Assembly (NCBI GenBank): GCA_035528795.1
Contig: DATKXY010000046.1
Span: forward strand, 2,499 to 66,498
Direction of reading: 5' to 3'
Length of the DNA stretch: 64,000 bases
Origin: an archaeon
Lineage (GTDB): Bacteria > Gemmatimonadota > Glassbacteria > GWA2-58-10
The translations under genes and the position numbers were made by a program. Positions 22,576 through 63,800 of the stretch are shown piece after piece. Numbering within the stretch: the first letter of the stretch is position 1; each line of letters opens with the position of its first letter. The notes beneath the pieces are model-generated. The model made no database searches and was not told the origin of the DNA. It saw nothing but the letters and a program-made list of their open reading frames with translations.

Positions 22576-22968
22576 TTATTCTTGCTCCTCAAAGGGACCA
22601 ATCAGGCGTTCGGCCAGTTCCATGAACTTTTCTGCGCGTGAAATCTGTTCCATAGCTTCATCTGCACCCAATCCCGGTTTGATGTCATAATCGCCCACAT
22701 TGCGGCTTTCCTGGCCCTCTATCAGAAAACGGTGAAACTCCGGAGGCACTCGGCCTGATTTGGTGAATCGCTTACCGAAATCAGAGATCACGGCTGAGTG
22801 CTTAGAATATGCAAGCCCTTCTCCCAACAACAAGGTTTCAGCAACATAAAACATGGCATAGTAAGCACGTGAAACAGCAAAATCGAAGAAACCCTGGCCT
22901 GAAAGCAATCTGGAAGCCTCCAGGCTGGCCTGCGCTTTTTTGAGAAGTGCTGCCTGTTCGGAAGTCAT
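22576..22968 (-). CDS. HEPN-domain protein (toxin component of HEPN/MNT pair)
   Basis: 130 aa; HEPN fold with R-x4-6-H-like region (RNVGDYD); overlaps MNT gene by 4 nt. Confidence 0.7.
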   Translation of the reverse strand: MTSEQAALLKKAQASLEASRLLSGQGFFDFAVSRAYYAMFYVAETLLLGEGLAYSKHSAVISDFGKRFTKSGRVPPEFHRFLIEGQESRNVGDYDIKPGLGADEAMEQISRAEKFMELAERLIGPFEEQE

Positions 22969-23285
22969 GCAGTTACCCCTTCCCTGCGCACGTTGATTAA
23001 CAGCGGGCTCCGCTCAGTGTTGAAACGTTTCTCGGAGATGAAAGTGCAGGAAATCACCATATCATTTCTCAGTGAAATATCAGCCGCCTTCTCGCCGGTT
23101 CTGGCGATCTCCTTGCCGGGGTTCACTATCCCCTTGAGTACAACTAGTATGTCAATATCCGATCCGGGCACCGCATCATCCCGGACCTGAGAACCGAAAA
23201 GCAATATCTGGATCAGCCGGCCCCCATAAAGTTCTTCGAGATACTCTCGAAACTCGGACACAATGGCCTGAATCTCAGTTTTCAT
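22965..23285 (-). CDS. minimal nucleotidyltransferase (MNT) domain protein (antitoxin/AMPylase partner)
   Basis: 106 aa; GSQVRDDAVPGSDIDILVV = GSxxRG...DxD nucleotidyltransferase motif. Confidence 0.8.
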   Translation of the reverse strand: MKTEIQAIVSEFREYLEELYGGRLIQILLFGSQVRDDAVPGSDIDILVVLKGIVNPGKEIARTGEKAADISLRNDMVISCTFISEKRFNTERSPLLINVRREGVTA

Positions 23286-23659
23286 GACTTTTTCTCCGTT
23301 TTATTCTTTTACCCTTTTATGCCTGGAATTTAAGTTCCCAGTTTATAGCTTTTTGAATCCCACTGCTACGATAATTTTAATCCTTAAAAAAAGATTTTTT
23401 ATTCACTTGATAATAGATCTAGTCGCCTTTTATACATCGACTCAAGATATCCCGGGCAAAAAGGACTTCAGAAGCAAGCATATTTATCTGGTCCTATATT
23501 GTGTGCAATTGCACCCGGATTGGGATCATTATTTAAGTTCAACAGGATTTCTTCATTCCGGTTATTACAGATCCTGGCTGACTATTATTCAAAGTCGATG
23601 GATAAAAAATAATTCAGACCTTTGAAAAAATCTCAGGTAAAAGGATAAAATTCTGTCCG

Positions 23660-23687
23660 ATAGGGGCGGTTTGCGAACCGCCCCTAT
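23660..23687. terminator. perfect 12-bp GC-rich hairpin (ATAGGGGCGGTT-tgcg-AACCGCCCCTAT) in AT-rich spacer; possible terminator or REP-like element
   Basis: exact inverted repeat read directly from sequence; no adjacent T-run, so terminator role uncertain. Confidence 0.35.
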
Positions 23688-23835
23688 GATAATTCATTGA
23701 TTTTTATAGCGTTATAAAGAGCAAGCTGCTTTCTTTGGATAAGATAATAATATTTTTCAAAGGTTCCTAATCCTTCAGACTGAAGAATCCGATTGTCCTG
23801 AAATAAATTGGTCATTGTAAATTGCTTTCTGCAAT

Positions 23836-25533
23836 CTACTGCCCGCCCGCCTTTCCCCTGTATCCGAGCCCGCGCACGAACCGGCCCGGAGTCGCCCCGG
23901 TATGCTCCCCGTTTTTTATCACCTGGACGCCATTGACAAAGACATGCAGCACCCCGGTTGCATACTGCTGCGGCTTTTCGAAAGTTGCGTGGTCCGCGAT
24001 GCTCCGCGGGTCGAACACAACGAGATCGGCAAAGCAGCCTTTCTTGAGCAGGCCGCGGCGCTCGAGGCTGAGATTGGTCGCCGGCAGATAGCTCAGGCGC
24101 CGCACGGCCTCCTCAATTGATAAGATACCCTCCTCGTGAGTGTATTTGGCCAGCACCCGCGCAAAAGAGCCATAGGCCCGCGGGTGAGTGCTCGACTTGA
24201 GGAACACGCCCTCGGGCGCGGAGGACTCTGCATCCGAGCAGAAGCTCACCCAGGGCAGCGAGATTTCCCGGCGGACATTGTCTTCGCTCATCAGAAAATA
24301 CACCGTAAGAACCCGGCTGTCGTCCTCCACCATAAGGTCCATGGCGGTTTCATCCGCGGGCTTGCCGCGCATGGCGGCCGCCTCGGCCAGGGTCTTGCCG
24401 GTCAGAGGCTTGAGCTTTTCGGACTTGAAACCGGTAAGCAGCATGTTTTCCGGACCCGCCAGATAGAAAAAGTTCTCCCAGTCCTCACCCGGCCCGGCCA
24501 TTTCCCGTTTCAGCCTTTCCCGGACAGCAGGGTCTTTGAGTCTTTCGATCCAGACCTGGTGTCCACCCTCCTGGACCCAGGGGGGCATGGCGGCATCCAG
24601 ACCGGTCATGGCGGCTGTGTAGGGATAGATGTCCGCAGTGATCCGCAATCCCTCGGCGCGCGCCGCCTCGATGCGCTGGATCGCCGCCTCGAGCTTGTCC
24701 CAGTTGGGATGCCCGGCGGCCTTGAAGTGGTAGATCTCGGCCGGGACCCGGGCTTTTCGTGAAGTCTCAATCAGCTCGTCAACCGCCTCCAGAAATGAGT
24801 TCCCCTCGCTCCTGAGATGCGAGATATACATGCCGCCGTAAGCACCCGATGCCTGCGCCAGGGCGATAAGCTCCCCGGTGCCGGCATAGAAACCCGGGGC
24901 GTAGATCAGCGCGGAGGCGACCCCGAGCGCGCCCTCCTCCATGGCTTCCCTCACCAGCCCGCACATCCGCTCGAGCTCCTCAGGGGTGGGGGCCCGGTCC
25001 TCGTAACCGAGCACGTAGATGCGGGGCGTGGCCGCGCCTATGAACGAGGCCACATTGGTCGAGATTCCCCGCCGCTCGAGGTATTCCAGATATTCTCCCA
25101 GGGTGGTCCATTCGATATCGTATTTGATATCCGCCTGGCGGTCCACCAGCTCCTGTTTCATTTTCTCGTTCAGCGGGCCCATTGACTCGCCCTCACCCAG
25201 GACCTCCAGGGTCACCCCTTGCCGGATGTCGCTTTGCGAGCGGCCGTCCTCGATCAGCGACTCATTGGCCCAGCTGAGCATATTGATAAATCCGGGGGAG
25301 ACGGCAAGTCCCGCGGCATCGATCTCTGTGCGGCCGCGGGCGGCTCTTGCGAGCGGTCCCAGCGCGGCGATCGAGTCCCCATCGATCGCCACATCTCCTG
25401 CAAAGGCTGGAGAGCCGCTCCCGTCGTAGATTGTGCCATTGCGGATAACCACATCGTATTCCCGGACAGGGGAACATGTCAGACAGAATGTCAGGGCGAT
25501 GATAAAATATAGAAACCGGGCTGGAACTCGCAT
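23836..25533 (-). CDS. N-acyl-D-amino-acid deacylase (D-aminoacylase) family amidohydrolase, secreted
   Basis: signal peptide; YDVVIRNGTIYDGSG...DVAIDGDSIAALG amidohydrolase N-terminal pattern of COG3653 enzymes; 565 aa. Confidence 0.75.
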   Translation of the reverse strand: MRVPARFLYFIIALTFCLTCSPVREYDVVIRNGTIYDGSGSPAFAGDVAIDGDSIAALGPLARAARGRTEIDAAGLAVSPGFINMLSWANESLIEDGRSQSDIRQGVTLEVLGEGESMGPLNEKMKQELVDRQADIKYDIEWTTLGEYLEYLERRGISTNVASFIGAATPRIYVLGYEDRAPTPEELERMCGLVREAMEEGALGVASALIYAPGFYAGTGELIALAQASGAYGGMYISHLRSEGNSFLEAVDELIETSRKARVPAEIYHFKAAGHPNWDKLEAAIQRIEAARAEGLRITADIYPYTAAMTGLDAAMPPWVQEGGHQVWIERLKDPAVRERLKREMAGPGEDWENFFYLAGPENMLLTGFKSEKLKPLTGKTLAEAAAMRGKPADETAMDLMVEDDSRVLTVYFLMSEDNVRREISLPWVSFCSDAESSAPEGVFLKSSTHPRAYGSFARVLAKYTHEEGILSIEEAVRRLSYLPATNLSLERRGLLKKGCFADLVVFDPRSIADHATFEKPQQYATGVLHVFVNGVQVIKNGEHTGATPGRFVRGLGYRGKAGGQ

Positions 25534-25873
25534 CAGGAACGCTCCTTCAGGGGGTAATATCGAATGACAAATACCTGCTTCCGGCAGAAAATGAGGAACG
25601 ACTCATCGGCAGTTCTCAATGGCGGGTTTATCCAATTAATGACATTATAGTTAAAAAAATGTGTAAACCTATATGAAAAAATAAAGTTTTAAAATGCACG
25701 TTTACAAAGCAAAATAATAAATGGTAACAGTTAAAAATGTAATTATTAATTATAAAACAAATCAAATATATGGTTGATAGAAATATTTTAATGAATGACA
25801 TGCTTTTTAGGGCTTTAGTAAATTAGCTAGTAACTCCTTTTTGATGTCCCTCCTTGTAAGTGGGGAGTTTTAC

Positions 25874-27049
25874 TTAAAAAGTAAACTTATTAAGATTAAA
25901 GCACTCTTCACAATTAGTCAATATACAACTATTACCAGAACCTGGTAGATAATGTAATCCTTTTCTATCAATTTTATATACGAAAGAATCTGCGCATACA
26001 CCCTGTAATATATTTATTGACGTATGTTTTTCGGCTTTTATAGAATCTAGAAATAATTCTTCCTGTGCTGATAACAAGAAAGGATTTATTTGCTGAGGTG
26101 ATTTTAACTTGTCTTGGCAATATGCCGAAACATTTGTACAAGCAATACAACAATTTTCAAAATGATTTTGGAAAAATTTAAGCGTGTCTTCACTTGGATG
26201 TTTAGGGTTGTTTGCAGGACAACTTATAGCAGCAAGAAAAGGCCTATAGACAGCAATAATTTTTTCCAAACAGGTTTTAAGGCCTATTTGATAAGCCCCG
26301 TGATGGGATACCTTAAAAAAACATAGTGTATTTAATATTGATTTATTTGTTATACTTAAGCATCGATTTGTAACATTACGCCAATTACGCTGGCCCACAA
26401 GATCTCCAGTGAATAAGAACAAATATTCTATTGAATCGACGTAATATCTAAAAATAAAAACATGGCACAGTGAATTAAACGATTCCCCAGAATCACCTGA
26501 TTTTTTTATTGCAGACCTTAATATAGCCAATGAATCTATTGCATTTGGGGATAATGCCACAAAATCGAGTTTTTTATGTAGATGATCTCGCCATGCAGAT
26601 GGTTTTGTATTTCCTTCAAAATTCATTGTCAATATAGTTGGAATACCATCTGCTTTGTTTTTAACATTTATATTTTTTAACTTATTTAATGATTCTAGTA
26701 TTGATTTTCTTAATGTTTTAAGTGTATCAGGATATAGATATTCTAATACAAAAAACCAATCTCCCGGATCGCCTGGTAAATTCGGAATGACAATATTATC
26801 TATAGTACAATCTTCATTTTCAAGATAATTTGCTAAATCAGGAAGGCCAGATATATGATCATAGTGAAGGTGGGTAATAAAGAGTGTATTTAAGTGCGTT
26901 ATTTTGTTTTTTTTTAAAAATTCTATAGAAGGTACAGATTCACCAATTTTTTTGCAATCAATAAGTGAATAATAACATCCTGAATTATCTTGGGTTTTTA
27001 TTACAACAGAATCTCCCAAGCCTACATTCAATACTATTATTTCAAGCAT
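25874..27049 (-). CDS. metallo-beta-lactamase-fold hydrolase with Cys-rich C-terminal region
   Basis: HxHxDH motif THLHYDHISG; downstream His/Asp ligands; C-terminal 130 aa with about 9 Cys. Confidence 0.65.
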   Translation of the reverse strand: MLEIIVLNVGLGDSVVIKTQDNSGCYYSLIDCKKIGESVPSIEFLKKNKITHLNTLFITHLHYDHISGLPDLANYLENEDCTIDNIVIPNLPGDPGDWFFVLEYLYPDTLKTLRKSILESLNKLKNINVKNKADGIPTILTMNFEGNTKPSAWRDHLHKKLDFVALSPNAIDSLAILRSAIKKSGDSGESFNSLCHVFIFRYYVDSIEYLFLFTGDLVGQRNWRNVTNRCLSITNKSILNTLCFFKVSHHGAYQIGLKTCLEKIIAVYRPFLAAISCPANNPKHPSEDTLKFFQNHFENCCIACTNVSAYCQDKLKSPQQINPFLLSAQEELFLDSIKAEKHTSINILQGVCADSFVYKIDRKGLHYLPGSGNSCILTNCEECFNLNKFTF

Positions 27050-27057
27050 CTTTTCTC

Positions 27058-27645
27058 TTATTTTAAAAATTCTTTAATTAATTTTTGCTCTTCTTCATCC
27101 AAGTGCCCTTGTTTGAAAGGTTTTAAATATAACTTTTTAGAAGATCCTATTTGACGAACTTCAATGTCGATTCTTGAGTAGAGTTTTACAGGAAAAGGGA
27201 TACTGGTTAATGGTTTTTTGATTTGATATTGTTTTCCTTCGACAGAAACATCAATTATTGCTTTTACTGGGTCTCCAGATAAATTCTCCTCAAGTCCAAC
27301 AACCAATGCCGGGTATAAACCAATTACTTCGTCGAGTTGAGCAAGGAGCTCTTTAAGATCATCAGCAACAGTTTTGGCTTTTGGACTTACAATATTAATT
27401 GGATAAACTTGACTAACAAGAGATTTTTGTTCTAATACATCAAATATATCATCACCTCGTACGCTTGCTGTATAAGTTCCAATAGTCATACTGGCTATAG
27501 CAGCACCAGCTGTCCAATCAATTAGTTTTACTCTAAGGTTTTCCAATTTATGTGGTTCTCTATCTGGTATGTTCTCTACTGCGTTTATTTTTTTTTCTTT
27601 CAAGTCTAAATGAGTTTCAGTTAAATCCATTGTATTAATCCTCAT
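27058..27645 (-). CDS. hypothetical protein (island operon, middle gene)
   Basis: 195-aa ORF, 4-nt overlap with upstream gene; no recognised motif. Confidence 0.45.
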   Translation of the reverse strand: MRINTMDLTETHLDLKEKKINAVENIPDREPHKLENLRVKLIDWTAGAAIASMTIGTYTASVRGDDIFDVLEQKSLVSQVYPINIVSPKAKTVADDLKELLAQLDEVIGLYPALVVGLEENLSGDPVKAIIDVSVEGKQYQIKKPLTSIPFPVKLYSRIDIEVRQIGSSKKLYLKPFKQGHLDEEEQKLIKEFLK

Positions 27646-28472
27646 TCGAATTTTATAAAATCTGAAATATTAATAATATTAGAAATTTCAAGAGCCAATT
27701 TATCTATTACAAAATCTGTTCCACCCATTTCTTCTAACGTAGAAGCTTTACTTGGAATAAGTTGATAATCAAACATTGCTCCAGCAATAAAGGCTTTTTC
27801 ATCTTTATGGTTGTCTGGATCGATTAATTTAAAAATAAAGCATATTTCATTGTTTTCTTTATCCTTAGGAAAATAATATCTGTTTTGTGCTATTTTTTCG
27901 GAATTTTTTGCCTGAATATTGCCAGGAAAGGTCGCTTGTTTTCTAAATTTCTCAAGAATCGTCCATTTAACTTCATTTAAAGGAATATAATAATATTCTA
28001 CAAGACCGATAAATCTTGCAGCAGGCAGTCCTTGTGGTAAAAGTCGTTCTATCAATTTTAAAGTAGAAGAGAAATTTTTTAAAGTATCTTTTCTAAAATC
28101 CTTTTTTTCAAAATCCCTTAACTCAGCCTCCCTTATTTTATCATCTAGAAAAATAAATGGAATTAATTTGTTTTCAAATTTATTATCACCATCACTTTCA
28201 TTGTCTGAATCAGGTAAAAGTTTAAATAATGGTTTACTTATTGCCAGTATAGTATTTATAATTAAAAAATTATACGTAAATGTTATTAATATATTTCTTA
28301 TTTTTATTTGCAATTCATTCTTTTTAATAGATATTTTTAAATTTTTGTCATTTGCATCTAAAAATGCATCGGCAATATCGCTAAAAGAATTAGTAACAGT
28401 TAGCCTAGCTTTTTCAAAATGATACCCAAACAACATTGCCACTAAGCAGTCTTTTTTTTCAATCACAGCCAT
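27642..28472 (-). CDS. hypothetical protein with internal hydrophobic helix (island operon, first gene)
   Basis: 276-aa ORF; hydrophobic segment ILITFTYNFLIINTILAI; no recognised family. Confidence 0.45.
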   Translation of the reverse strand: MAVIEKKDCLVAMLFGYHFEKARLTVTNSFSDIADAFLDANDKNLKISIKKNELQIKIRNILITFTYNFLIINTILAISKPLFKLLPDSDNESDGDNKFENKLIPFIFLDDKIREAELRDFEKKDFRKDTLKNFSSTLKLIERLLPQGLPAARFIGLVEYYYIPLNEVKWTILEKFRKQATFPGNIQAKNSEKIAQNRYYFPKDKENNEICFIFKLIDPDNHKDEKAFIAGAMFDYQLIPSKASTLEEMGGTDFVIDKLALEISNIINISDFIKFE

Positions 28473-28847
28473 TTTTATTTGAGAGTTATTGAGTTATAAT
28501 TTTATTAAAAAATAGCTTTACGAATGGGTTTAATAATCAAAAGATTGTAGCATATCATTCGATACCTCTCCTTATCCCAAATCAATACCTCATTTAGGTC
28601 CAAGAAAGTTCTAATTATTTTCTATCGTTTTGAATTCATTATATAATATTAAAACATTGTTGTCCAGAAAGAATTCTAGAGCAATGTTTTTTCTAATCGG
28701 AAAAGGCATTTATTTTTTTTAATCAAAATTGTTTTAATAGATCGCTTTCAGGAAATAATTATTATGTCTTTTTTTGTGTACCTGTCCTTTTTTGTTTTTT
28801 AACTTCTTTTAATTTTTTACGTGTTTTTTATAAATCTTACTTTTTTT

Positions 28848-30959
28848 TCAGTGCGAGTAAATTGAAGGTTTGTGGACGTAGCAATCCTCGTTATCAGAGG
28901 GTTCTGTGCCGAGCTTGAAGATTTCCGTGTAGATCAGTTCGGGTGGACAGAACGGGGTGGCCAGGAGCCCTGAGGATTTGCAAATCAGACGGGTGGTGAG
29001 CCCATCCGGCGGGCTTTCGAAATCGTGCACCTCGAGTTTCTCGTAGGCCGCTTTCATAAACTCCGCCCAGATAGGAAGCGCAAGCACGCTGCCGGTTCCC
29101 TGGTTGACTATTCTCTTGGGCTGGTCGAATCCCACCCAGACCCCGCAGACCAGATCTGGAGTAAAGCCCACGAACCAGGCATCGGTGTAGTCATTGGTGG
29201 TTCCTGTCTTACCGCCTGCAGGAATGGAAAAACCCAGCGAGCGCGCGGCGATCCCGGTGCCGTGATCCACTACATCGCGCAGCATGCTGAGCACTATGAA
29301 GGATGTCTGGGGACTCAGTACCTCTTCCCGGCTCGGCATGTACTTGCGCAGCGGGTTCCCGTTACTGTCGCGGATTTCAGTAATGGCCAGGGGCTCGACT
29401 TTGACTCCCAGGTTGGGAAAAACCGTGAAGGCGGTTATGAGCTCTATCGGATACACATCCGCGCTGCCCACAGCAATCGACTCGACATTCGGGATCGGAG
29501 TACTGATCCCCATGCGCCTTGCGTAAGCGCCTACTGTTTCGGCACCTACAGTCATCAGGGTCTTGATCGCCACCAGGTTGATCGAGCGGGTCAAACCGGT
29601 GCGAATGGTCACCGGCCCCAGAAAATCACCGGTATAGTTGGATGGCCGCCAGATCGTGCCATCCGCCTGGTTGATCGAAATGGGCGAATCCTCCACTACC
29701 TGGCTGGCCGGGATACCATTGTCAATCGCCGCGGTATAGACAAACGGTTTGAATGCGCTGCCCGGCTGGCGCACTGCCTGTACAGTCCGGTTAAATTTGC
29801 TCTCCCAGTAGTTCCTGCCGCCGATCATGGCCTTGATATGCCCGTTTTTCGGATTCATGGCTAAAAGCGCGGACTGCAGATACAGGGTATTGAACTTCTC
29901 CTCTGTGGAGAGCGAGTCTTTACCGATAATCTCCTTGCGGGTCCGGTAGTGGAAAGGCCGGATCCTGCCCGCTTCTATGGTCTCGACGTACGTTTCCACA
30001 GCCCTCTCCGCCGCTTTCTGCATGCGTACATCCAGAGTCGTGTACACCTGCAGGCCGAGCCGGTAAAGTTCTTCTTCCGTGTAGTCCTTGAGAAGCTGCT
30101 GCTTGACGTACTCGATGAAATATGGGGCGATCCAGCCCCTGTTTTTCTGCGGGTTGAGCTTTATGGGCAGCGCCTTGATCGAATCGGCGGTCTGAGGTCT
30201 GGTAAAGCCTGTTTCCACCATGGAGGCGAGGACCAAGTTGCGACGGTCCAGCGCGTTTTGCATTTTAACCAGAGGGCTGTTGCGGCTTGGCGCATTGGGC
30301 AGTCCGGCAAGAACCGCGCATTCAGCCAGGTCGAGCTCGCTCACTTTTTTGCCGAAATAAGTCCGGGCGGCCTCCTCGATACCCCAGGCCCCGCTGCCGA
30401 AATAAATCTGGTTGAAATAGCGCTCCAGAATCTCGTCCTTGGTATAGGTGCTCTCGATTTCCCAGGCGAGGATCGCTTCGCGTATCTTGCGGGTGTAAGT
30501 CTTTTCGCGGGTCAGGAAAAGCTCGCGAGCCAACTGCTGGGTAATGGTGGAGCCTCCCTGGACGATTTTCCCGGTGACCTGGTTGGTATAGAAGGCGCGG
30601 ATAATACCCCAGAGGTCGATACCCCAGTGCGAATAGAACTTGCGGTCCTCCACCGCGAGCAGAGCCTGCTTCAGCTCGGAAGGAATCTGATCCAGCGGCA
30701 CCGGTACCCGGCGCTCGGTGTACAGTTCGGCTATCAGGGTGCTGTCTGATGAAAAGAGGCGGGTCACCAGATTGGGCGGATCAAGCTCCATTTTGGCAAT
30801 CGAAGGAAGCTCGGATCTGAAGTATTTGAAAAGCTCGTAACCCATGCCGATGGAAAAGAAAACCGTACTCGTGACTACGAGCAGGGTCACCTTGACCAGA
30901 CTCCTGAATACCGGTCTCTGGTCCGCTCTGGGTTTATTTTTACCGCTCTGGGTTGCCAT
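28848..30959 (-). CDS. mrcA: class A penicillin-binding protein 1A (transglycosylase/transpeptidase)
   Basis: GT51 motifs (EDRKFYSHWGID, RKIREAILAWEIE), transpeptidase SxxK (SAFKPF), SxN, KTGT; ATG 30957-30959 with GAGG SD preferred over TTG 31019. Confidence 0.85.
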   Translation of the reverse strand: MATQSGKNKPRADQRPVFRSLVKVTLLVVTSTVFFSIGMGYELFKYFRSELPSIAKMELDPPNLVTRLFSSDSTLIAELYTERRVPVPLDQIPSELKQALLAVEDRKFYSHWGIDLWGIIRAFYTNQVTGKIVQGGSTITQQLARELFLTREKTYTRKIREAILAWEIESTYTKDEILERYFNQIYFGSGAWGIEEAARTYFGKKVSELDLAECAVLAGLPNAPSRNSPLVKMQNALDRRNLVLASMVETGFTRPQTADSIKALPIKLNPQKNRGWIAPYFIEYVKQQLLKDYTEEELYRLGLQVYTTLDVRMQKAAERAVETYVETIEAGRIRPFHYRTRKEIIGKDSLSTEEKFNTLYLQSALLAMNPKNGHIKAMIGGRNYWESKFNRTVQAVRQPGSAFKPFVYTAAIDNGIPASQVVEDSPISINQADGTIWRPSNYTGDFLGPVTIRTGLTRSINLVAIKTLMTVGAETVGAYARRMGISTPIPNVESIAVGSADVYPIELITAFTVFPNLGVKVEPLAITEIRDSNGNPLRKYMPSREEVLSPQTSFIVLSMLRDVVDHGTGIAARSLGFSIPAGGKTGTTNDYTDAWFVGFTPDLVCGVWVGFDQPKRIVNQGTGSVLALPIWAEFMKAAYEKLEVHDFESPPDGLTTRLICKSSGLLATPFCPPELIYTEIFKLGTEPSDNEDCYVHKPSIYSH

Positions 30960-41144: not shown

Positions 41145-42002
41145 CTAATCTCGAAAATAGTTTGGAGGAACAGCTTTAAAGTCTGTTTTCCTGCCTGGAT
41201 TTGTTTGCGCTAAATGCAGTGACTCTATAGGAAGATGGAATGTCTGTACCGCAAGTTGATTTTTTCCTTCGTGTCTATAAATAGTTCTTTCATGTGCTAT
41301 ACGATAAGGTGAAATTGCAACGGAGCCACCGTAATAACCTGTATTGCAAACAACAACGTTAGAATAAACCGTTCGTGATAGTGATTCTGCGATATGGTAA
41401 AAAGAGTTAATATCCTTGTTATATGCCAAAACAAATAAATGATGTAGCTTCCCCTTATATATTAAGTGCCGCTCAATATCCATAAAGTCGTAGCATATAC
41501 AAACACCAAAATCGCCATAGTTACGAGTATTAAATACCCAATGCGTTTTGTTTTTATTATAACTCCATCCAATATTTTTTATATGACTTTTTTCCGTAGG
41601 AGCAAGATAAGTTTTATTTAAAAAGAAAAACTTTGCATATCCACTTTTACTGCGACTTGGCCAATAAGGAGGAACAATAATCACCCCCTCATTAGCTACC
41701 GTCTTGGCTCTATAATCTAAATTGTAATCTATACCGCATATTACTATTGATCCAACTTGTACTACTATTTTGCCCAATAAATTTAAATATCCTCTTGGCA
41801 CTGCTAATTCCGGAAATATTATGATGTGTGGTTTTTGATAAGCGTAATAAAGAGTTCTCATTACATATCTTATTTCAGACCATGCAATTTTTTGCTCGGA
41901 AGCTTGCATTTGCGGAGGACTATTATTTTTCCAAGCTGCAATTCGATCTACTGTAGTTTCTCCAACACCTACTATTAGTATTTCTTCGTAAAATGAAGAC
42001 AT
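41145..42002 (-). CDS. nitrilase-superfamily (CN-hydrolase) protein, stand-alone
   Basis: catalytic triad context: IIIFPELAVP (Glu), FFLNKTYLAP (Lys), GVCICYD (Cys); 285 aa; starts 2 nt after RT stop. Confidence 0.75.
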   Translation of the reverse strand: MSSFYEEILIVGVGETTVDRIAAWKNNSPPQMQASEQKIAWSEIRYVMRTLYYAYQKPHIIIFPELAVPRGYLNLLGKIVVQVGSIVICGIDYNLDYRAKTVANEGVIIVPPYWPSRSKSGYAKFFFLNKTYLAPTEKSHIKNIGWSYNKNKTHWVFNTRNYGDFGVCICYDFMDIERHLIYKGKLHHLFVLAYNKDINSFYHIAESLSRTVYSNVVVCNTGYYGGSVAISPYRIAHERTIYRHEGKNQLAVQTFHLPIESLHLAQTNPGRKTDFKAVPPNYFRD

Positions 42003-42004
42003 AC

Positions 42005-45000
42005 TTATTCTTCTTCCTCATCATTTATTATGCTTGGCTTTGTCAATAATTCTAATTTTACGGGTATTAGTTGCACAGGTTCACCATTTTTGACCGTAAG
42101 CTGATATTTTTCTAAATGTTGACGTGAATTTTTTACTCTAAGGTAAAACTCATCGACTGCTACAATTGGTTCGGGATCGTCAAGAGAATCGTCTTCGCCA
42201 TAATGGGTCAACATATTCAATTGTTTTAGCATTGCTGTTTCTCGAGCCCTAGATGTCAGCGAGCCTAATAGCAACGAAGTAGTATTAGAGGAGCAGCGGA
42301 CGTCGTTTAATAATGTAAAAGGGAAACGTTGTTGAGATCTCCAATTACCTGGAGGATTCCATTTTTCAGGCCAAATAAATGACCGTCTTAAAAGAGCTAA
42401 CAATAAAAGAGCAGGCCCTCGAATGTGACTATATTCTGCACCTTCCTGATTTATCCAAGATGAATATCGAGGATCTTCAATTAAATCATCTATTCTATTT
42501 TGCAAGATAGGGGTATTGGATTCTATATGACTCCTCCAAGCATCCCAAGTTAAAGGGTATTTTTGAGTTATCCAGTTTCTAGGAATAAAAAAGTTTCCTG
42601 GGTGGTATGGTACTTCTGTATCCCTAGCAACGTTTTTAAAACTTAGCAATAATTTTCCAATTTCTTCTATTATTTTTAATGCTGTCCATTCTGATAATCG
42701 CAGGTCGGATGGGTATTTTTTGTTTTGTTCATTCAACCATTTGGTCCATTGAAACAAATCAATTTTTGATCTGTAATTCATCGTTCGCAATTGACTTTTT
42801 ACAAAATTTTTATCTGCATTCTCATCTGAATTTTGATACCAATCGTACAACCATCCTTTTCCTTGAGCCAATGCAAAACGTTTGAATTGACTTTTTTTAA
42901 TTCTTTTTGACAGATTTGATATCTTTAAATCGTATGGATATTTTGCAATAGTGGGCCAAACTTCCTTATTTTTTAGATTTGCATAATTGACATATTTGTG
43001 CCAAATCAATCCCGCTTGCTCACCTAATTTATAATTAATTTTCTTCTCTGCCAGCCATACCCAAATGGATATATCGTATCCACTTATATGCGACCAATCC
43101 TGATGATTGCTATCCCAGGTAAATGCATTAATTCTTTGACCAAATTCTTCTAAAGATTTTATTGATTCCCGGATCTTGCTTTTGTGGGTTATCTTTTCTA
43201 TAGAAGTTTTGCATACCTCATTTAATACTTCTATAGCAGAGCCAGTTATAAATTTCAAATTACAATATGAGGCATTAAAAAAAGCTTTGGCTTCACTACT
43301 ACTCCCAAATTGCAAAGAACAATTTTCCAGCGAGTTTAGAAATTGGCATCTTGCTGCAACTGCATCTGGCGATATATCATTTTTACAAATATCGTTTATT
43401 GCTTTTGCAATTTGATCAGAAAGAATCTGATAAACTACCGCTCGCAAATATTCTAAAGCATATTTATTGGTGTCTTTTCGCTTTTCATTCGCAAGCAATT
43501 CAATAATCGACTTTATGCCTTGGTATCCAGACAACCTGCAAAATTGTATTGCGAATAGCCATAGGCGTATTTTATCTGGGTAATCATTTATCGCTCTGAT
43601 GAGTATCTCGTGTATAAAAGCTTCTTCACCTTCTAATCTTTTTTTTAAACTAGCTCTTTCATTTTTTAGATCACTATTTTTTTTTAACAATTTTTTATTT
43701 AACTCTTCTAATTCATTCTCATTCTCATCTCTACTAATAAATTCATTTCGGTATTTATTCATGGAGCTTTCTATTTTATCCTTTGATGCTTCTATATTGG
43801 CTTTTTCCCTTTCCGTATAATTTATTTCTGCTTCTTTCTGTTGAATATGTTCTGGATACAAGTAACTCAAACGCGATGCGGCAAAAGTCATTCTAGTATC
43901 TCGCCTTATTTCAGCATCTGGGAAATCAGCCATCATCAAGTGTTTTAAATCCTCGATGAAATGAGATTGCTCTTCGAAGTCCAAAAGATCAAAAGGTGTG
44001 AGAGCAAGGTTAGATATTTGCGCTAAGGTAGGCGTTGTCAATGGCACGGGAAATCTTGGATCATATTTTGTAGCTTGCTTCGCATCACTTTCTAAATCTT
44101 TTTTATCTTCCTTTTTTATCTTCGAAGATAGATATCTTCCTAACTCCTTCGGCTGAGTTTTATCAATGTTGAAATCGATGGTCTCGATTTTTTCCCTTAA
44201 TAATTCGCGGTAGGCAATTATCCAATTCGTTAATTCTTCAAATGAATTACTCAAAAATATATGGTCATCTACAAATCTGAAATGTGCAATAGACCTGTTA
44301 TTTTTTAGTAAATCACTAACAATATGATCAACTTCCAATAGAGCCAAATTTGCAAGAAATCCAGCCACAAATAGACCCGTTGGAATTCCTTTGAATAATT
44401 TTTGTTTTTTTGAAAATTCAAGTTTCTCTATTTCATCTTCATTTAAATTCGAAAAATCCAAATTAAATGTGAGTAAATTATTTAATAGCTCCCTACCCTC
44501 CCTGGCGAGAGTAGAATAGTTAAGTATATTTTTTTCAATGATATTTATATTACAGCTTGGATAGAACTTTGATAAATCTATTCCTCCCCAATGCCATTTA
44601 CCCGTTTTTAAAGTTGATTGCCAATATCCCTTTTTCAAATAAGGAAGCTTATGTTCTTCGGTTAAATATTTTTCACTTTCTAATATCCGATTCTCCGCTT
44701 CATCGAAAGGGATATCTTCAATAGACGCCATTTTTTTTATTGTTAGATTGATATGACGTCTATAAAGTGGCCAACTGTGCTTAAATTTCCTGTAAAGATT
44801 TTTCGTCGTATGCCTGTATGGGCCAATTTTCAGTCGATCTTTTACATCGGAGATAGAGTCTTTCCACGCTGTCCTATATAACCTATGCCCGTAACTCCAA
44901 GGCATCATTTTATTGTCTAACTCTGGTCCAACAATATTTATATACGCAATCCATACGACTTGATCGCGCACATCTATATCGAAATACTGCCTTAGTCTAG

Positions 45001-45295
45001 TTTGCCCATTTTCATCTTTTCTTTTTGGATGAACTAATGGTCTTAGCGGCGACATATCATATTTACCAGCGCTAAATTGCTCTTCTATTATGCTAAGCTC
45101 TCTGTCCAAATGTTTCTCGAAATCAGCAACAGCTGCTTCGTTAAACCATGCGTCTCCAATACGATATAGAAAATACGTTTTTTCCCAAGCCCACAGCAAA
45201 TTTTCTGGTAAAGTTAATCTTTTAATCAGCTTACTTTGTGGCATTATGTCGTCTCTTTTTGGATCGGAGGTATTCCTCCAAATCTTGTCCCTCAT
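42005..45295 (-). CDS. large reverse transcriptase with about 750-aa alpha-helical C-terminal extension (UG/Abi-like defence-associated RT candidate)
   Basis: RT motifs 1/2 (PLRPLVHPKRKDENGQTRLRQYFDIDVRDQV), A (GGIDLSKFYPS), B (GIPTGLFVAGFLANLAL), C (FRFVDDHIF; FVDD encoded at 44264-44275); ORF-track start is TTG 45307, first ATG 45293 or 45244. Confidence 0.85.
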   Translation of the reverse strand: MRDKIWRNTSDPKRDDIMPQSKLIKRLTLPENLLWAWEKTYFLYRIGDAWFNEAAVADFEKHLDRELSIIEEQFSAGKYDMSPLRPLVHPKRKDENGQTRLRQYFDIDVRDQVVWIAYINIVGPELDNKMMPWSYGHRLYRTAWKDSISDVKDRLKIGPYRHTTKNLYRKFKHSWPLYRRHINLTIKKMASIEDIPFDEAENRILESEKYLTEEHKLPYLKKGYWQSTLKTGKWHWGGIDLSKFYPSCNINIIEKNILNYSTLAREGRELLNNLLTFNLDFSNLNEDEIEKLEFSKKQKLFKGIPTGLFVAGFLANLALLEVDHIVSDLLKNNRSIAHFRFVDDHIFLSNSFEELTNWIIAYRELLREKIETIDFNIDKTQPKELGRYLSSKIKKEDKKDLESDAKQATKYDPRFPVPLTTPTLAQISNLALTPFDLLDFEEQSHFIEDLKHLMMADFPDAEIRRDTRMTFAASRLSYLYPEHIQQKEAEINYTEREKANIEASKDKIESSMNKYRNEFISRDENENELEELNKKLLKKNSDLKNERASLKKRLEGEEAFIHEILIRAINDYPDKIRLWLFAIQFCRLSGYQGIKSIIELLANEKRKDTNKYALEYLRAVVYQILSDQIAKAINDICKNDISPDAVAARCQFLNSLENCSLQFGSSSEAKAFFNASYCNLKFITGSAIEVLNEVCKTSIEKITHKSKIRESIKSLEEFGQRINAFTWDSNHQDWSHISGYDISIWVWLAEKKINYKLGEQAGLIWHKYVNYANLKNKEVWPTIAKYPYDLKISNLSKRIKKSQFKRFALAQGKGWLYDWYQNSDENADKNFVKSQLRTMNYRSKIDLFQWTKWLNEQNKKYPSDLRLSEWTALKIIEEIGKLLLSFKNVARDTEVPYHPGNFFIPRNWITQKYPLTWDAWRSHIESNTPILQNRIDDLIEDPRYSSWINQEGAEYSHIRGPALLLLALLRRSFIWPEKWNPPGNWRSQQRFPFTLLNDVRCSSNTTSLLLGSLTSRARETAMLKQLNMLTHYGEDDSLDDPEPIVAVDEFYLRVKNSRQHLEKYQLTVKNGEPVQLIPVKLELLTKPSIINDEEEE

Positions 45296-46295
45296 TAAGT
45301 TTTGCAACTCTTACAATTTTCCCACCCTTTGAAAAAAGAGTTGTTAATTTTGAAGCTCCTTTTTTACCCGCTTCATCCATATCAAATACTATTATTATGT
45401 TGTAATCAGCAAATAAAGAAATCCAACTATCTCTAAAAGATCCTACACCTAATATTCCAACTGCATTGTATCCATTGCCTATAGCAGCTAAAGTATCGGG
45501 TACACCTTCAAGTATTAAAACCTTGCTTCTAATTTTTATTTTTTTTAGCACTTCAGAATTATACATAGGCTTGCTTAATCCTGATAAGTTTATATATTTA
45601 GGACCTTTAGTGTGGTTAAATCGCCTGCCCTGTATATAAACAACTTTTTCTTGGTACAAAAAGGGAAATAGAATACTACGGTCCCACCATACTAAAGTAG
45701 CCTTATTATCTTTTTTCTTAGCAATGCCACAATTGAGGAGACGTTTCACTCCATAAAGTGTAATTAATTTTGCCCAAGTTTCTTTGGGTGCTTCCAACTC
45801 ACCAATTCTTGCATTTTTTATCAATTCCGCAGAAAAGCCCCTTTTTTCTAAGTAATCAGTACCTTTCTTTGTGATTGGACATAACTCAAGTAGTTTCTCA
45901 TATATATCATTATCGCTTCCCTTTGGGTAAAATGCACTTTGGATGTCGTATGTTTCCGTCCTGTAAAAAAGTTTTTTTTGTTGGACATTACTCCCTTTTA
46001 CTGCTTTTCTCTTAAGCTTACTACTATCCATGTTATAACTACACATCAACCATTCAACAGCCTCATTGAAGCCGATATTCAGCACTTTTGCAACCAAATC
46101 GATATTTGATCCGCCCTCATTGCATCCAAAACATTTCCAAGTATTTGTATCTTCCTTAATTGAAAAGCTTGGGATTTTATCTTCATGTGTTCCCAATGGA
46201 CATCTGGACTTATTATTTTTAACGCATATCCCTAAAAGCTTTGCCACATCTATAATTGGAATACCTTTTATCTGATCTAGTTTCATTTTAACCAA
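45231..46295 (-). CDS. DnaG-like primase: zf-CHC2 zinc finger plus TOPRIM domain
   Basis: CPLGTHEDKIPSFSIKEDTNTWKCFGCNEGGSNIDLV (zf-CHC2); TOPRIM Glu (VLILEGVPD) and DxDxAG (VFDMDEAGKKG); 3'-end overlaps RT start. Confidence 0.75.
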   Translation of the reverse strand: MVKMKLDQIKGIPIIDVAKLLGICVKNNKSRCPLGTHEDKIPSFSIKEDTNTWKCFGCNEGGSNIDLVAKVLNIGFNEAVEWLMCSYNMDSSKLKRKAVKGSNVQQKKLFYRTETYDIQSAFYPKGSDNDIYEKLLELCPITKKGTDYLEKRGFSAELIKNARIGELEAPKETWAKLITLYGVKRLLNCGIAKKKDNKATLVWWDRSILFPFLYQEKVVYIQGRRFNHTKGPKYINLSGLSKPMYNSEVLKKIKIRSKVLILEGVPDTLAAIGNGYNAVGILGVGSFRDSWISLFADYNIIIVFDMDEAGKKGASKLTTLFSKGGKIVRVAKLNEGQDLEEYLRSKKRRHNATK

Positions 46296-62937: not shown

Positions 62938-63137
62938 GATTCGAAATATAAAATTCAAAAACAATATTACAGTAATACATTTCCGCTAGCCTAGGCTTTA
63001 ATAATTTAATAAAGCGTTTTTCAAAAAAAAGTTTTTTGAATAGGGATTGGAAATATTCTCCTTGTTGGTAGTTTTAGAAAAAAGAGCCCACTTTATTTTG
63101 GACAGCAGTGATTGAAAATATCAAATCGGAGGAAAAA

Positions 63138-63800
63138 ATGAAAAAAACGACTTTGTTAATTCTATTCCTATCCTTAGCATTTGTTGATAATATCCAGGCA
63201 AAGAAAATAGGAGATTTTAACGGAGATGGAGATATAAATATCCTTGATGCAATATCTTTTATAAGAATAATTGTAAATCAAGTACCAGATAGCATTGTCG
63301 GACAAGAGTACATTGTCTTGAACGGTGAAGGGCTGAAAATTGGAACTTTTGATGGCTATGAAAGAATAAGGTGCTATTCAGATGGAAATCTGGCGGTTGA
63401 TATATATGCTACCTCCGCTTTAGGAACGGTAAGATTAATATCAAAAGCTTTAGAAACTTATGAAACTACATATGAATGGAGACACACAGGATATTTTTCA
63501 AGGCCATACGGTAGTGCTTGTCTGATAATTCCGAAAGATTCAATTCTACCAAATATTATTACTTGGCAAGTTGGAGATGCTGCACCTGTTTGGGATAATA
63601 CCAACAAAAAGTTTAAAGTATATGTTTCAGGCGATACTACTTATACATTTTCGCCTGATACTGAAATAAATGCACCCAATTTGTCAGGATTGGTTTGTAG
63701 AAATGATTTTGATTCATTGGTAGCCAGAGTTAATGCTATTAGTGCTCTTTTAGGTGCAGATGTGAATAAATTAAAAGCAGATTCTGGAATGAACCCTTAA
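63138..63800 (+). CDS. secreted protein with dockerin-like Ca-binding repeat
   Basis: signal peptide; GDFNGDGDINILDAISFIR matches dockerin type-I repeat (DxNxDGxxNxxD); AT-rich gene. Confidence 0.5.
   Translation: MKKTTLLILFLSLAFVDNIQAKKIGDFNGDGDINILDAISFIRIIVNQVPDSIVGQEYIVLNGEGLKIGTFDGYERIRCYSDGNLAVDIYATSALGTVRLISKALETYETTYEWRHTGYFSRPYGSACLIIPKDSILPNIITWQVGDAAPVWDNTNKKFKVYVSGDTTYTFSPDTEINAPNLSGLVCRNDFDSLVARVNAISALLGADVNKLKADSGMNP

Follow-up and report, generated by a model that had tools for sequence, protein, structure and literature searches.

A rare, AT-rich three-gene cassette combines a predicted metallo-beta-lactamase-fold DNase with a putative TBP-like protein and an OB-fold protein and may act in defence

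Metallo-beta-lactamase (MBL)-fold DNases have recently been recognised as death effectors that bacterial immune systems exchange widely, and to our knowledge every characterised immune enzyme of this fold is a zymogen that is activated by a partner protease. The 64,000-nt stretch of DNA analysed here as a whole (positions 2,499 to 66,498 of contig DATKXY010000046.1, hereafter the window) contains a strongly AT-rich island whose three genes, designated A, B and C, form a conserved cassette ending in a predicted distant relative of these DNases. Among the closest described systems, the defence MBLs of the LmuA, DRT and Avs1a type are Zn-dependent double-stranded DNA nucleases (PMC12799240, PMC12642450). 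They are kept inactive by two gating loops and are activated by a co-encoded trypsin-, caspase- or subtilisin-like protease (PMC12799240, PMC12642450, bioRxiv 10.1101/2025.09.03.673762). ComEC is likewise a DNase, as relayed in PMC12799240, and tandem TBP-like domains bind the substrate in the anti-phage toxin RnlA (PMC8266594). The effector class represented in our cassette is known, and its partner set and lack of a protease are new. Full-text literature searches returned no description of such a trio, nothing on TIGR04255 or PDC-M48 (two names that recur below), and no work joining MBL-fold, OB-fold and defence island.

The three genes lie on the minus strand, as the initial annotation had reported and an open reading frame (ORF) listing confirmed. 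Gene A (27642..28472, 276 aa) is first in the operon and is followed by gene B (27058..27630, 190 aa; 195 aa with a start at 27645) and by gene C (25874..27049, 391 aa), which contains the MBL motif THLHYDHISG. A 4-nt overlap between A and B, claimed earlier, holds with the first ATG of gene B (ATGA) and is replaced by an 11-nt gap with the second ATG (M6, 27630). The latter start has GAGGA upstream at 8-nt spacing and was chosen by most gene callers, giving the 190-aa product; the coupling of A and B is tight even with this start. Domain annotation used Pfam (2025), NCBIfam 20.0 (June 2026) and PADLOC-DB 2.0. In Pfam scans the cassette was flanked, as first described, by housekeeping genes: an Amidohydro_3 gene (D-aminoacylase-like, 23836-25533) beside gene C and PBP1A (Transgly and Transpeptidase domains, 28848-30959) beside gene A. 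The strong AT-richness was also borne out. The compositional island covers about 3.25 kb (~25600..28850) at about 30% GC, and local GC content within it was 0.25-0.33 versus 0.56-0.65 on both sides. GC content at third codon positions (GC3) was 0.17-0.19 in A, B and C versus 0.75 in the Amidohydro_3 gene and 0.71 in PBP1A, a gap that exceeds chance by far.

Both ends of the island are non-coding and AT-rich on the minus strand. The leader 5' of gene A (28473..28847, GC 0.24) holds the best sigma-70-like site of the region, TGGACA-17-TATAAT (28666..28638, minus strand), which is a consensus match only. The trailer 3' of gene C (25534..25873, GC 0.32) has a hairpin at 25850-25867, immediately 3' of the stop codon of gene C; its terminator-like call concerns the plus strand, and the minus-strand reading is without a T-run. 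An Rfam scan of the island identified no RNA family, no tRNA gene or integrase was found around it, and the search for flanking direct repeats gave only AT-rich chance matches. No empty site was found, because the contigs with an identical Amidohydro_3 protein all carry the island too.

The A-B-C order was seen in about 12 diverged lineages belonging to several bacterial phyla. A word-indexed search returned two real relatives of gene C (36% and 34% identity) and, for A and B, the query itself only. On the contigs of the two C relatives the three genes have the same order and sizes, and the first two products are 24-30% identical to A and B. Further lineages came from pattern scans that covered GTDB genomes and JGI metagenomes, and relatives of A and B were obtained via gene neighbourhoods and an exhaustive HMMER search. 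The hosts are patchily distributed and include Nitrospirae (locus L012), Pseudomonadota (L013), Desulfovibrionales (L014) and unclassified metagenome-assembled genomes (MAGs), with L017, L018 and L021 as other lineages. A layout of about 275, 189 and 380 aa is common to the window, the L001 and L005 types, L012, L013, L017, L018 and L021; the partial contigs L022-L025 and L029 agree with it, and overlaps or gaps between the genes are always 25 nt or less. When the fetched loci were searched with three profiles (hmmsearch), every MBL scoring above 500 bits had A and B upstream where the contig allowed.

The ratio of non-synonymous to synonymous substitution (dN/dS) was 0.09-0.33 for all three genes (Nei-Gojobori method; L005 vs. 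L021 and L013 vs. L018). A, B and C are thus real, selected coding genes, and they are under purifying selection. A-B-C is a conserved, co-inherited unit, and the functional module proposed initially is upheld by the invariant gene order, full co-occurrence and purifying selection. The A family is very rare: the exhaustive HMMER search found 14 clusters at 50% identity, all of about 270 aa, among 1.84 billion cluster representatives. Horizontal acquisition of the cassette, another early suggestion, is strongly supported because the GC3 gap is above 0.5, the cassettes of L012 (GC 0.32-0.37 vs. 0.41-0.44 in the surroundings) and L013 (0.35-0.38 vs. 0.47-0.50) are GC-poor, and the hosts are patchy. 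In the relatives examined the cassette is not at native GC.

Gene C is, as judged from its motifs, an enzyme of the MBL fold whose di-metal active site is intact. Lactamase_B was the only domain in the Pfam scan (1.3e-6, above cut-off), and the residues H60-x-H62-x-D64-H65, H158, D216 and H249/H250 show no variation across five lineages, which argues that the metal site has been preserved. The best PADLOC matches were LmuA-MBL (8.7e-10, 36 bits) and RTasMBL (1.9e-8, 32 bits), the latter alignment spanning residues 3-266, and a further match was to PDC-M48B at E about 0.01. NCBIfam gave weak matches to RNase Z, 6A-MBL, Avs1a and ComEC models, mostly over the HxHxDH segment only and with scores far under the cut-offs: 16.3 bits vs. 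420 for Avs1a, 17.5 bits vs. 220 for 6A-MBL (E 0.0017), and 16.6 bits vs. 190 for TIGR00361 (ComEC/Rec2; E 0.0016, residues 4-72 only). A search of Protein Data Bank (PDB) sequences with the MBL profile matched the metal motif only. These comparisons point to a distant relative of the defence MBL radiation that stands outside the families named. The protein is soluble, and none of its segments exceeds a Kyte-Doolittle hydrophobicity of 1.42. In the alignment, motifs II and III are separated by an insert of about 60 aa that is specific to the family. Gene C is a predicted Zn-dependent DNase and a candidate effector.

The initial annotation had also drawn attention to an unusual Cys-rich tail in this protein. 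Nine cysteines are indeed present in the last 115 residues (277, 300, 301, 304, 311, 352, 375, 380 and 383), and five of the nine, including C277, are conserved in the family. The tail itself proved largely normal, being for the most part the ordinary C-terminal part of this MBL type (CTN / G-x-I-x-I strands). When aligned with distant MBLs from the metagenome scan, C304, C311, C352 and C375 were present together in two MBL clades and together absent in others. This all-or-none pattern suggests that the four residues form a structural metal site, most likely for zinc.

The AlphaFold2 model of gene A (pLDDT 85.5, pTM 0.86; alignment made of HMMER hits) consists of two alpha+beta lobes, in each of which a helix packs against an antiparallel sheet; poorly ordered residues at about 84-115 link the lobes. 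On this model gene A would be a two-lobed TBP-like protein. Its lower-ranked structural matches were TBP-like domains of unknown function (DUFs), KA1 and COR domains, and matches in BFVD were to TBP-like proteins of giant viruses at low TM-score. The invariant polar residues K193, N197, R198, Y199, D235 and Q237 lie on two adjacent strands of lobe 2. As they alternate in spacing along these strands, they would make one conserved polar face. By sequence the family stands apart: scans of 16 A-family members against Pfam, NCBIfam and PADLOC gave no match, none of the 16 matched the TIGR04255 hidden Markov model (HMM) at E up to 10, and a profile search of PDB sequences with gene A gave chance hits only.

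One hydrophobic helix had been proposed for gene A, and this claim did not stand. Residues 61-79 are hydrophobic (Kyte-Doolittle 1.82), and they are modelled as beta-strands within the sheet at pLDDT 88-93; homologues have charged residues there, so the hydrophobicity is not uniform in the family. A membrane protein is ruled out by the confident beta-sheet model together with these charged residues. We also considered gene A as the missing protease and rejected it, since its fold is unlike that of trypsin or caspase and the family alignment contains no invariant Ser, Cys or His.

In gene B, the N-terminal residues up to about 85 are disordered and variable; beyond them lie a helix, an OB-fold beta-barrel and, at the C-terminus, a second helix. 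The barrel (residues ~100-175) is small, five-stranded and closed, of OB-fold or cold-shock-like type, and the model presents gene B as an intrinsically disordered region joined to an OB fold. Pfam, NCBIfam and PADLOC scans of gene B were without a match. It was rejected as a candidate protease on account of its OB fold and the lack of an invariant catalytic Ser, Cys or His. Structure prediction, proposed at the start as a check on the two smaller proteins, has in this way assigned two alpha+beta lobes to A and an OB-fold barrel to B.

A survey of gene neighbourhoods, another check proposed, found recognised defence or toxin-antitoxin genes in five of the six long contexts and no conserved metabolic, competence or RNA-processing context. 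For a small sample, such defence-rich surroundings are suggestive. In L013 the cassette has a DUF1156 methylase (HmaB-like, 1.7e-17) on one side and an SNF2 helicase (HmaA 3.9e-102; DrmD-like) on the other. L018 has the helicase and a 166-169-aa upstream gene in common with L013, at 64-70% identity, and also encodes a PDC-S60/effector-like metallophosphatase. The shared block of a 166-169-aa unknown, A-B-C and the HmaA/DrmD-like SNF2 helicase (L013 7936-14083; L018 5323-11834) may amount to a composite system of five or six genes. The cassette of L021 has, upstream of it, a type IIG restriction-modification gene and a PD-Lambda-2_B-like gene of HTH+M78 type, which is set apart from the cassette and is not conserved; L014 has a type I methyltransferase (6e-256). 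In the window, an MNT (NTP_transf_2)/HEPN pair of intermediate GC content (0.49-0.50) is encoded on the minus strand at 22576-23285, 2.6 kb from the cassette. Among the flanking genes of the window and the other loci we found no trypsin-, caspase- or subtilisin-like protease, and no competence or repair genes are conserved beside the cassette.

A homologous MNT/HEPN pair is located about 5 kb from the cassette of L021 (11457-12214, 30-34% identity). Its occurrence near both cassettes is probably a coincidence of common modules.

Cassettes of analogous design were encountered around more distant MBLs of 350-370 aa, which are preceded by a gene of 225-250 aa and a gene of 165-196 aa (L026 8713-14047; L034 6906-9234; L033 613-2986; L031 687-3044). 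The MBLs of L026, L034, L033, L031, L036 and L027 match defence MBL models more strongly than gene C does. The first gene of the L026 cassette encodes a TIGR04255-family protein scoring above cut-off, and the cassette is directly followed by a HamB-like helicase, much as an SNF2 helicase follows the cassettes of L013 and L018. Where the first product is not of the TIGR04255 family, it is an unknown of 230-250 aa. Some of these TIGR04255-type MBLs also have the Cys4 site in common with gene C. Kinship of A and B with the TIGR04255-type partners was examined with hhalign and gained no support, as both local and global comparisons were negative (A5 vs. A8: probability ~1% local, 0.04% global). 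Because no partner similarity was detected, the resemblance is counted as architectural only and may be an analogy. The middle proteins of the TIGR04255-type cassettes contain a G-x-V-x-x-I...A-Y-V-V-F-E motif reminiscent of S1/cold-shock barrels.

The L001-type loci differ in their ends. Exact terminal overlaps with the same 3,760-nt period were present in two assemblies (L001 1-128/3761-3888; L002 1-112/3761-3872), and the 3,760-nt junction maps to L014:8137 (region L014 8089-8285). On the 3' side of the MBL gene these loci contain a 202-aa reverse ORF with two paralogous halves, the first 20 codons of which recur upstream of the L014 cassette. The overlaps and the recurring codons suggest either that direct copies of a repeat element lie on both sides of the L001-type cassette or that the cassette is present in circular form or as a tandem copy.

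Our preferred reading, which we hold to have somewhat better than an even chance of being right, is that the cassette is a self-contained, horizontally transferred module for defence against phages or mobile elements. The toxin, defence or nuclease role first suggested is favoured here by inference from the motifs, the defence-MBL matches and five of the six contexts. In such a module, gene C would be a Zn-dependent DNase of the ComEC-like/defence-type MBL radiation and would act as the toxic effector. The polar sheet face of A and the OB barrel of B would make these proteins nucleic-acid- or ligand-binding partners, which may sense an infection-derived nucleic acid or a replication intermediate and restrain or license C through protein-protein contacts. 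Activated C would degrade DNA, either that of the invader or as abortive infection. The adjacent helicase suggests that in the L013/L018 sub-lineage the cassette may also serve as an effector module for helicase-based systems. A more specific proposal is that control is independent of a protease: the tandem TBP-like protein A, together with B and its disordered region and OB fold, would sense nucleic acid and gate the DNase in trans, within a portable module that works alone or with helicase systems. We put this forward tentatively, as possible and still short of probable. With similar reserve, the helicase systems that the portable module would join are taken to be Hma/DISARM-like for L013 and L018; for the analogous L026 cassette a Hachiman-like system is named.

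Several observations weigh against a role in defence. Gene C scores weakly against the defence models, at 32-36 bits and well short of the curated cut-offs, and RNase Z models score its HxHxDH region about equally. Only six long contexts were available, of which L013 and L018 are not independent because their flanks are shared, and the neighbours in L012 are purely housekeeping. The cassette was also absent from IMG/VR contigs, GenBank phages and PLSDB plasmids.

The tight operon, the patchy distribution and the foreign composition would suit an addiction or selfish module of toxin-antitoxin-like kind, with C as a toxic nuclease that is neutralised by A, by B or by both. We consider this unlikely, though less so than the other alternatives, and it is similarly unlikely in our view that the cassette owes its persistence to post-segregational killing, or to being carried by a small mobile element, and not to protecting its host. 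The disordered N-terminus of B, a trait of many antitoxins, fits such a module, as do the terminal overlaps, the 3,760-nt period and the flanking repeat-element copies of the L001 lineage. However, none of the cassettes contains a recognised recombinase or transposase, the cassette is missing from the plasmid and phage collections, and its three genes, with about 860 aa in all, exceed the usual size of a classical type II pair. Addiction moreover overlaps with abortive-infection defence and does not exclude that function.

If gene C were instead an RNase Z/J-like enzyme guided by a cold-shock-like B and a TBP-like A, the cassette would be an RNA-processing or RNA-degrading module. The top NCBIfam and PDB sequence matches of gene C are RNase Z and ELAC1, over the HxHxDH segment only; gene B resembles cold-shock domains, and the TBP-like domains of RnlA bind RNA (PMC8266594). 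But those matches span only about 25-50 residues at 20-26 bits vs. cut-offs above 250, neither a beta-CASP domain nor an RNase Z exosite was detected in gene C, and the longer alignments go to MBLs of the defence DNase type (RTasMBL, residues 3-266), which makes an RNA module quite improbable. An accessory function in DNA uptake, repair or recombination, with a ComEC-like nuclease and an OB-fold partner binding single-stranded DNA outside immunity, appears a shade less probable still. It draws on the weak ComEC/Rec2 match (TIGR00361, E 0.0016), on the ComEC-like annotation of the remote database relatives P0004 and P0008, and on the OB fold of gene B. Gene C is, however, without membrane channel domains or hydrophobic segments, the cassette has no conserved competence or repair neighbours, and its extreme rarity and foreign composition speak against a core function. 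A small-molecule hydrolase operon (lactonase, glyoxalase-II-like, or a cyclic-nucleotide phosphodiesterase such as Apyc1) is very improbable, since the weak GloB, lactonase and Apyc1 matches (E 0.007-0.08) are limited to the shared metal motif, the partner genes encode no enzymes of a recognisable pathway, and the context consists of defence genes and not of metabolism.

Elsewhere in the window, a second AT-rich island was located at 41145-46295 on the minus strand (GC about 0.34). Its three genes encode a 285-aa unknown, a protein of 1100 aa that weakly matches the RVT_1 reverse-transcriptase model (1.6e-6), and a DnaG-like primase of 354 aa (CHC2 zinc ribbon and Toprim). It looks like a locus of the defence-associated reverse-transcriptase type, and its presence in the same genome counts in favour of the defence reading of the cassette. 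At the end of the window there is a third AT-rich stretch (63108-63800, plus strand, GC about 0.35). The N-terminus of its 230-aa product is signal-peptide-like, and the protein also has a dockerin/EF-hand-like DFNGDGDINILD motif. Positions 23250-23750, upstream of the MNT gene, are AT-rich (GC 0.35) and non-coding-looking, holding only a low-complexity 113-aa ORF on the plus strand. NCBI calls the source MAG 'archaeon'; since the window encodes PBP1A (transglycosylase and transpeptidase) and a Mur ligase, its gene content suggests that either the source organism is bacterial or the bin is mislabelled.

Should the cassette defend its hosts, it would represent a second way of controlling MBL nucleases and provide a role for two orphan protein families. 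It would also be a clear case of a small, strongly AT-rich defence islet in an uncultivated bacterium of high GC content, with the reverse-transcriptase and primase island as a second case in the same window. If the TIGR04255 cassettes work by this logic too, a far larger protein family, so far uncharacterised, would gain a place in immunity.

Compared with described systems, the cassette resembles PDC-M48 and 6A-MBL, which are candidate or validated defence systems naming an MBL-fold component; it differs in that the gene C matches are marginal (13-17 bits) and A and B match no partner models. With ComEC/Rec2 it has the MBL superfamily branch and the HxHxDH di-metal site in common, whereas gene C is stand-alone, without a membrane channel and outside any competence context. 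RnlA/LsoA offer a loose precedent for consecutive TBP-like domains serving a nuclease, though there the domains are fused to a HEPN nuclease and here they form a separate protein beside an MBL nuclease. The closest likeness in gene C itself is to the protease-gated modules, namely HamM of HamMAB Hachiman, the Avs1/2/4-, Lamassu- and DRT-associated MBLs, and CanC of CanABC. Like these, it is a stand-alone ComEC-like MBL of about 350-400 aa and would supply the effector of a small operon located in defence islands; its best profile matches (LmuA-MBL, RTasMBL, Avs1a) fall among them, and CanABC also has three genes with the nuclease last. Unlike these modules, the cassette and its neighbours encode no trypsin-, caspase- or subtilisin-like protease, the gene order is its own with the MBL last in the cassette, and the place of the protease is taken by a predicted TBP-like protein A and a predicted OB-fold protein B.

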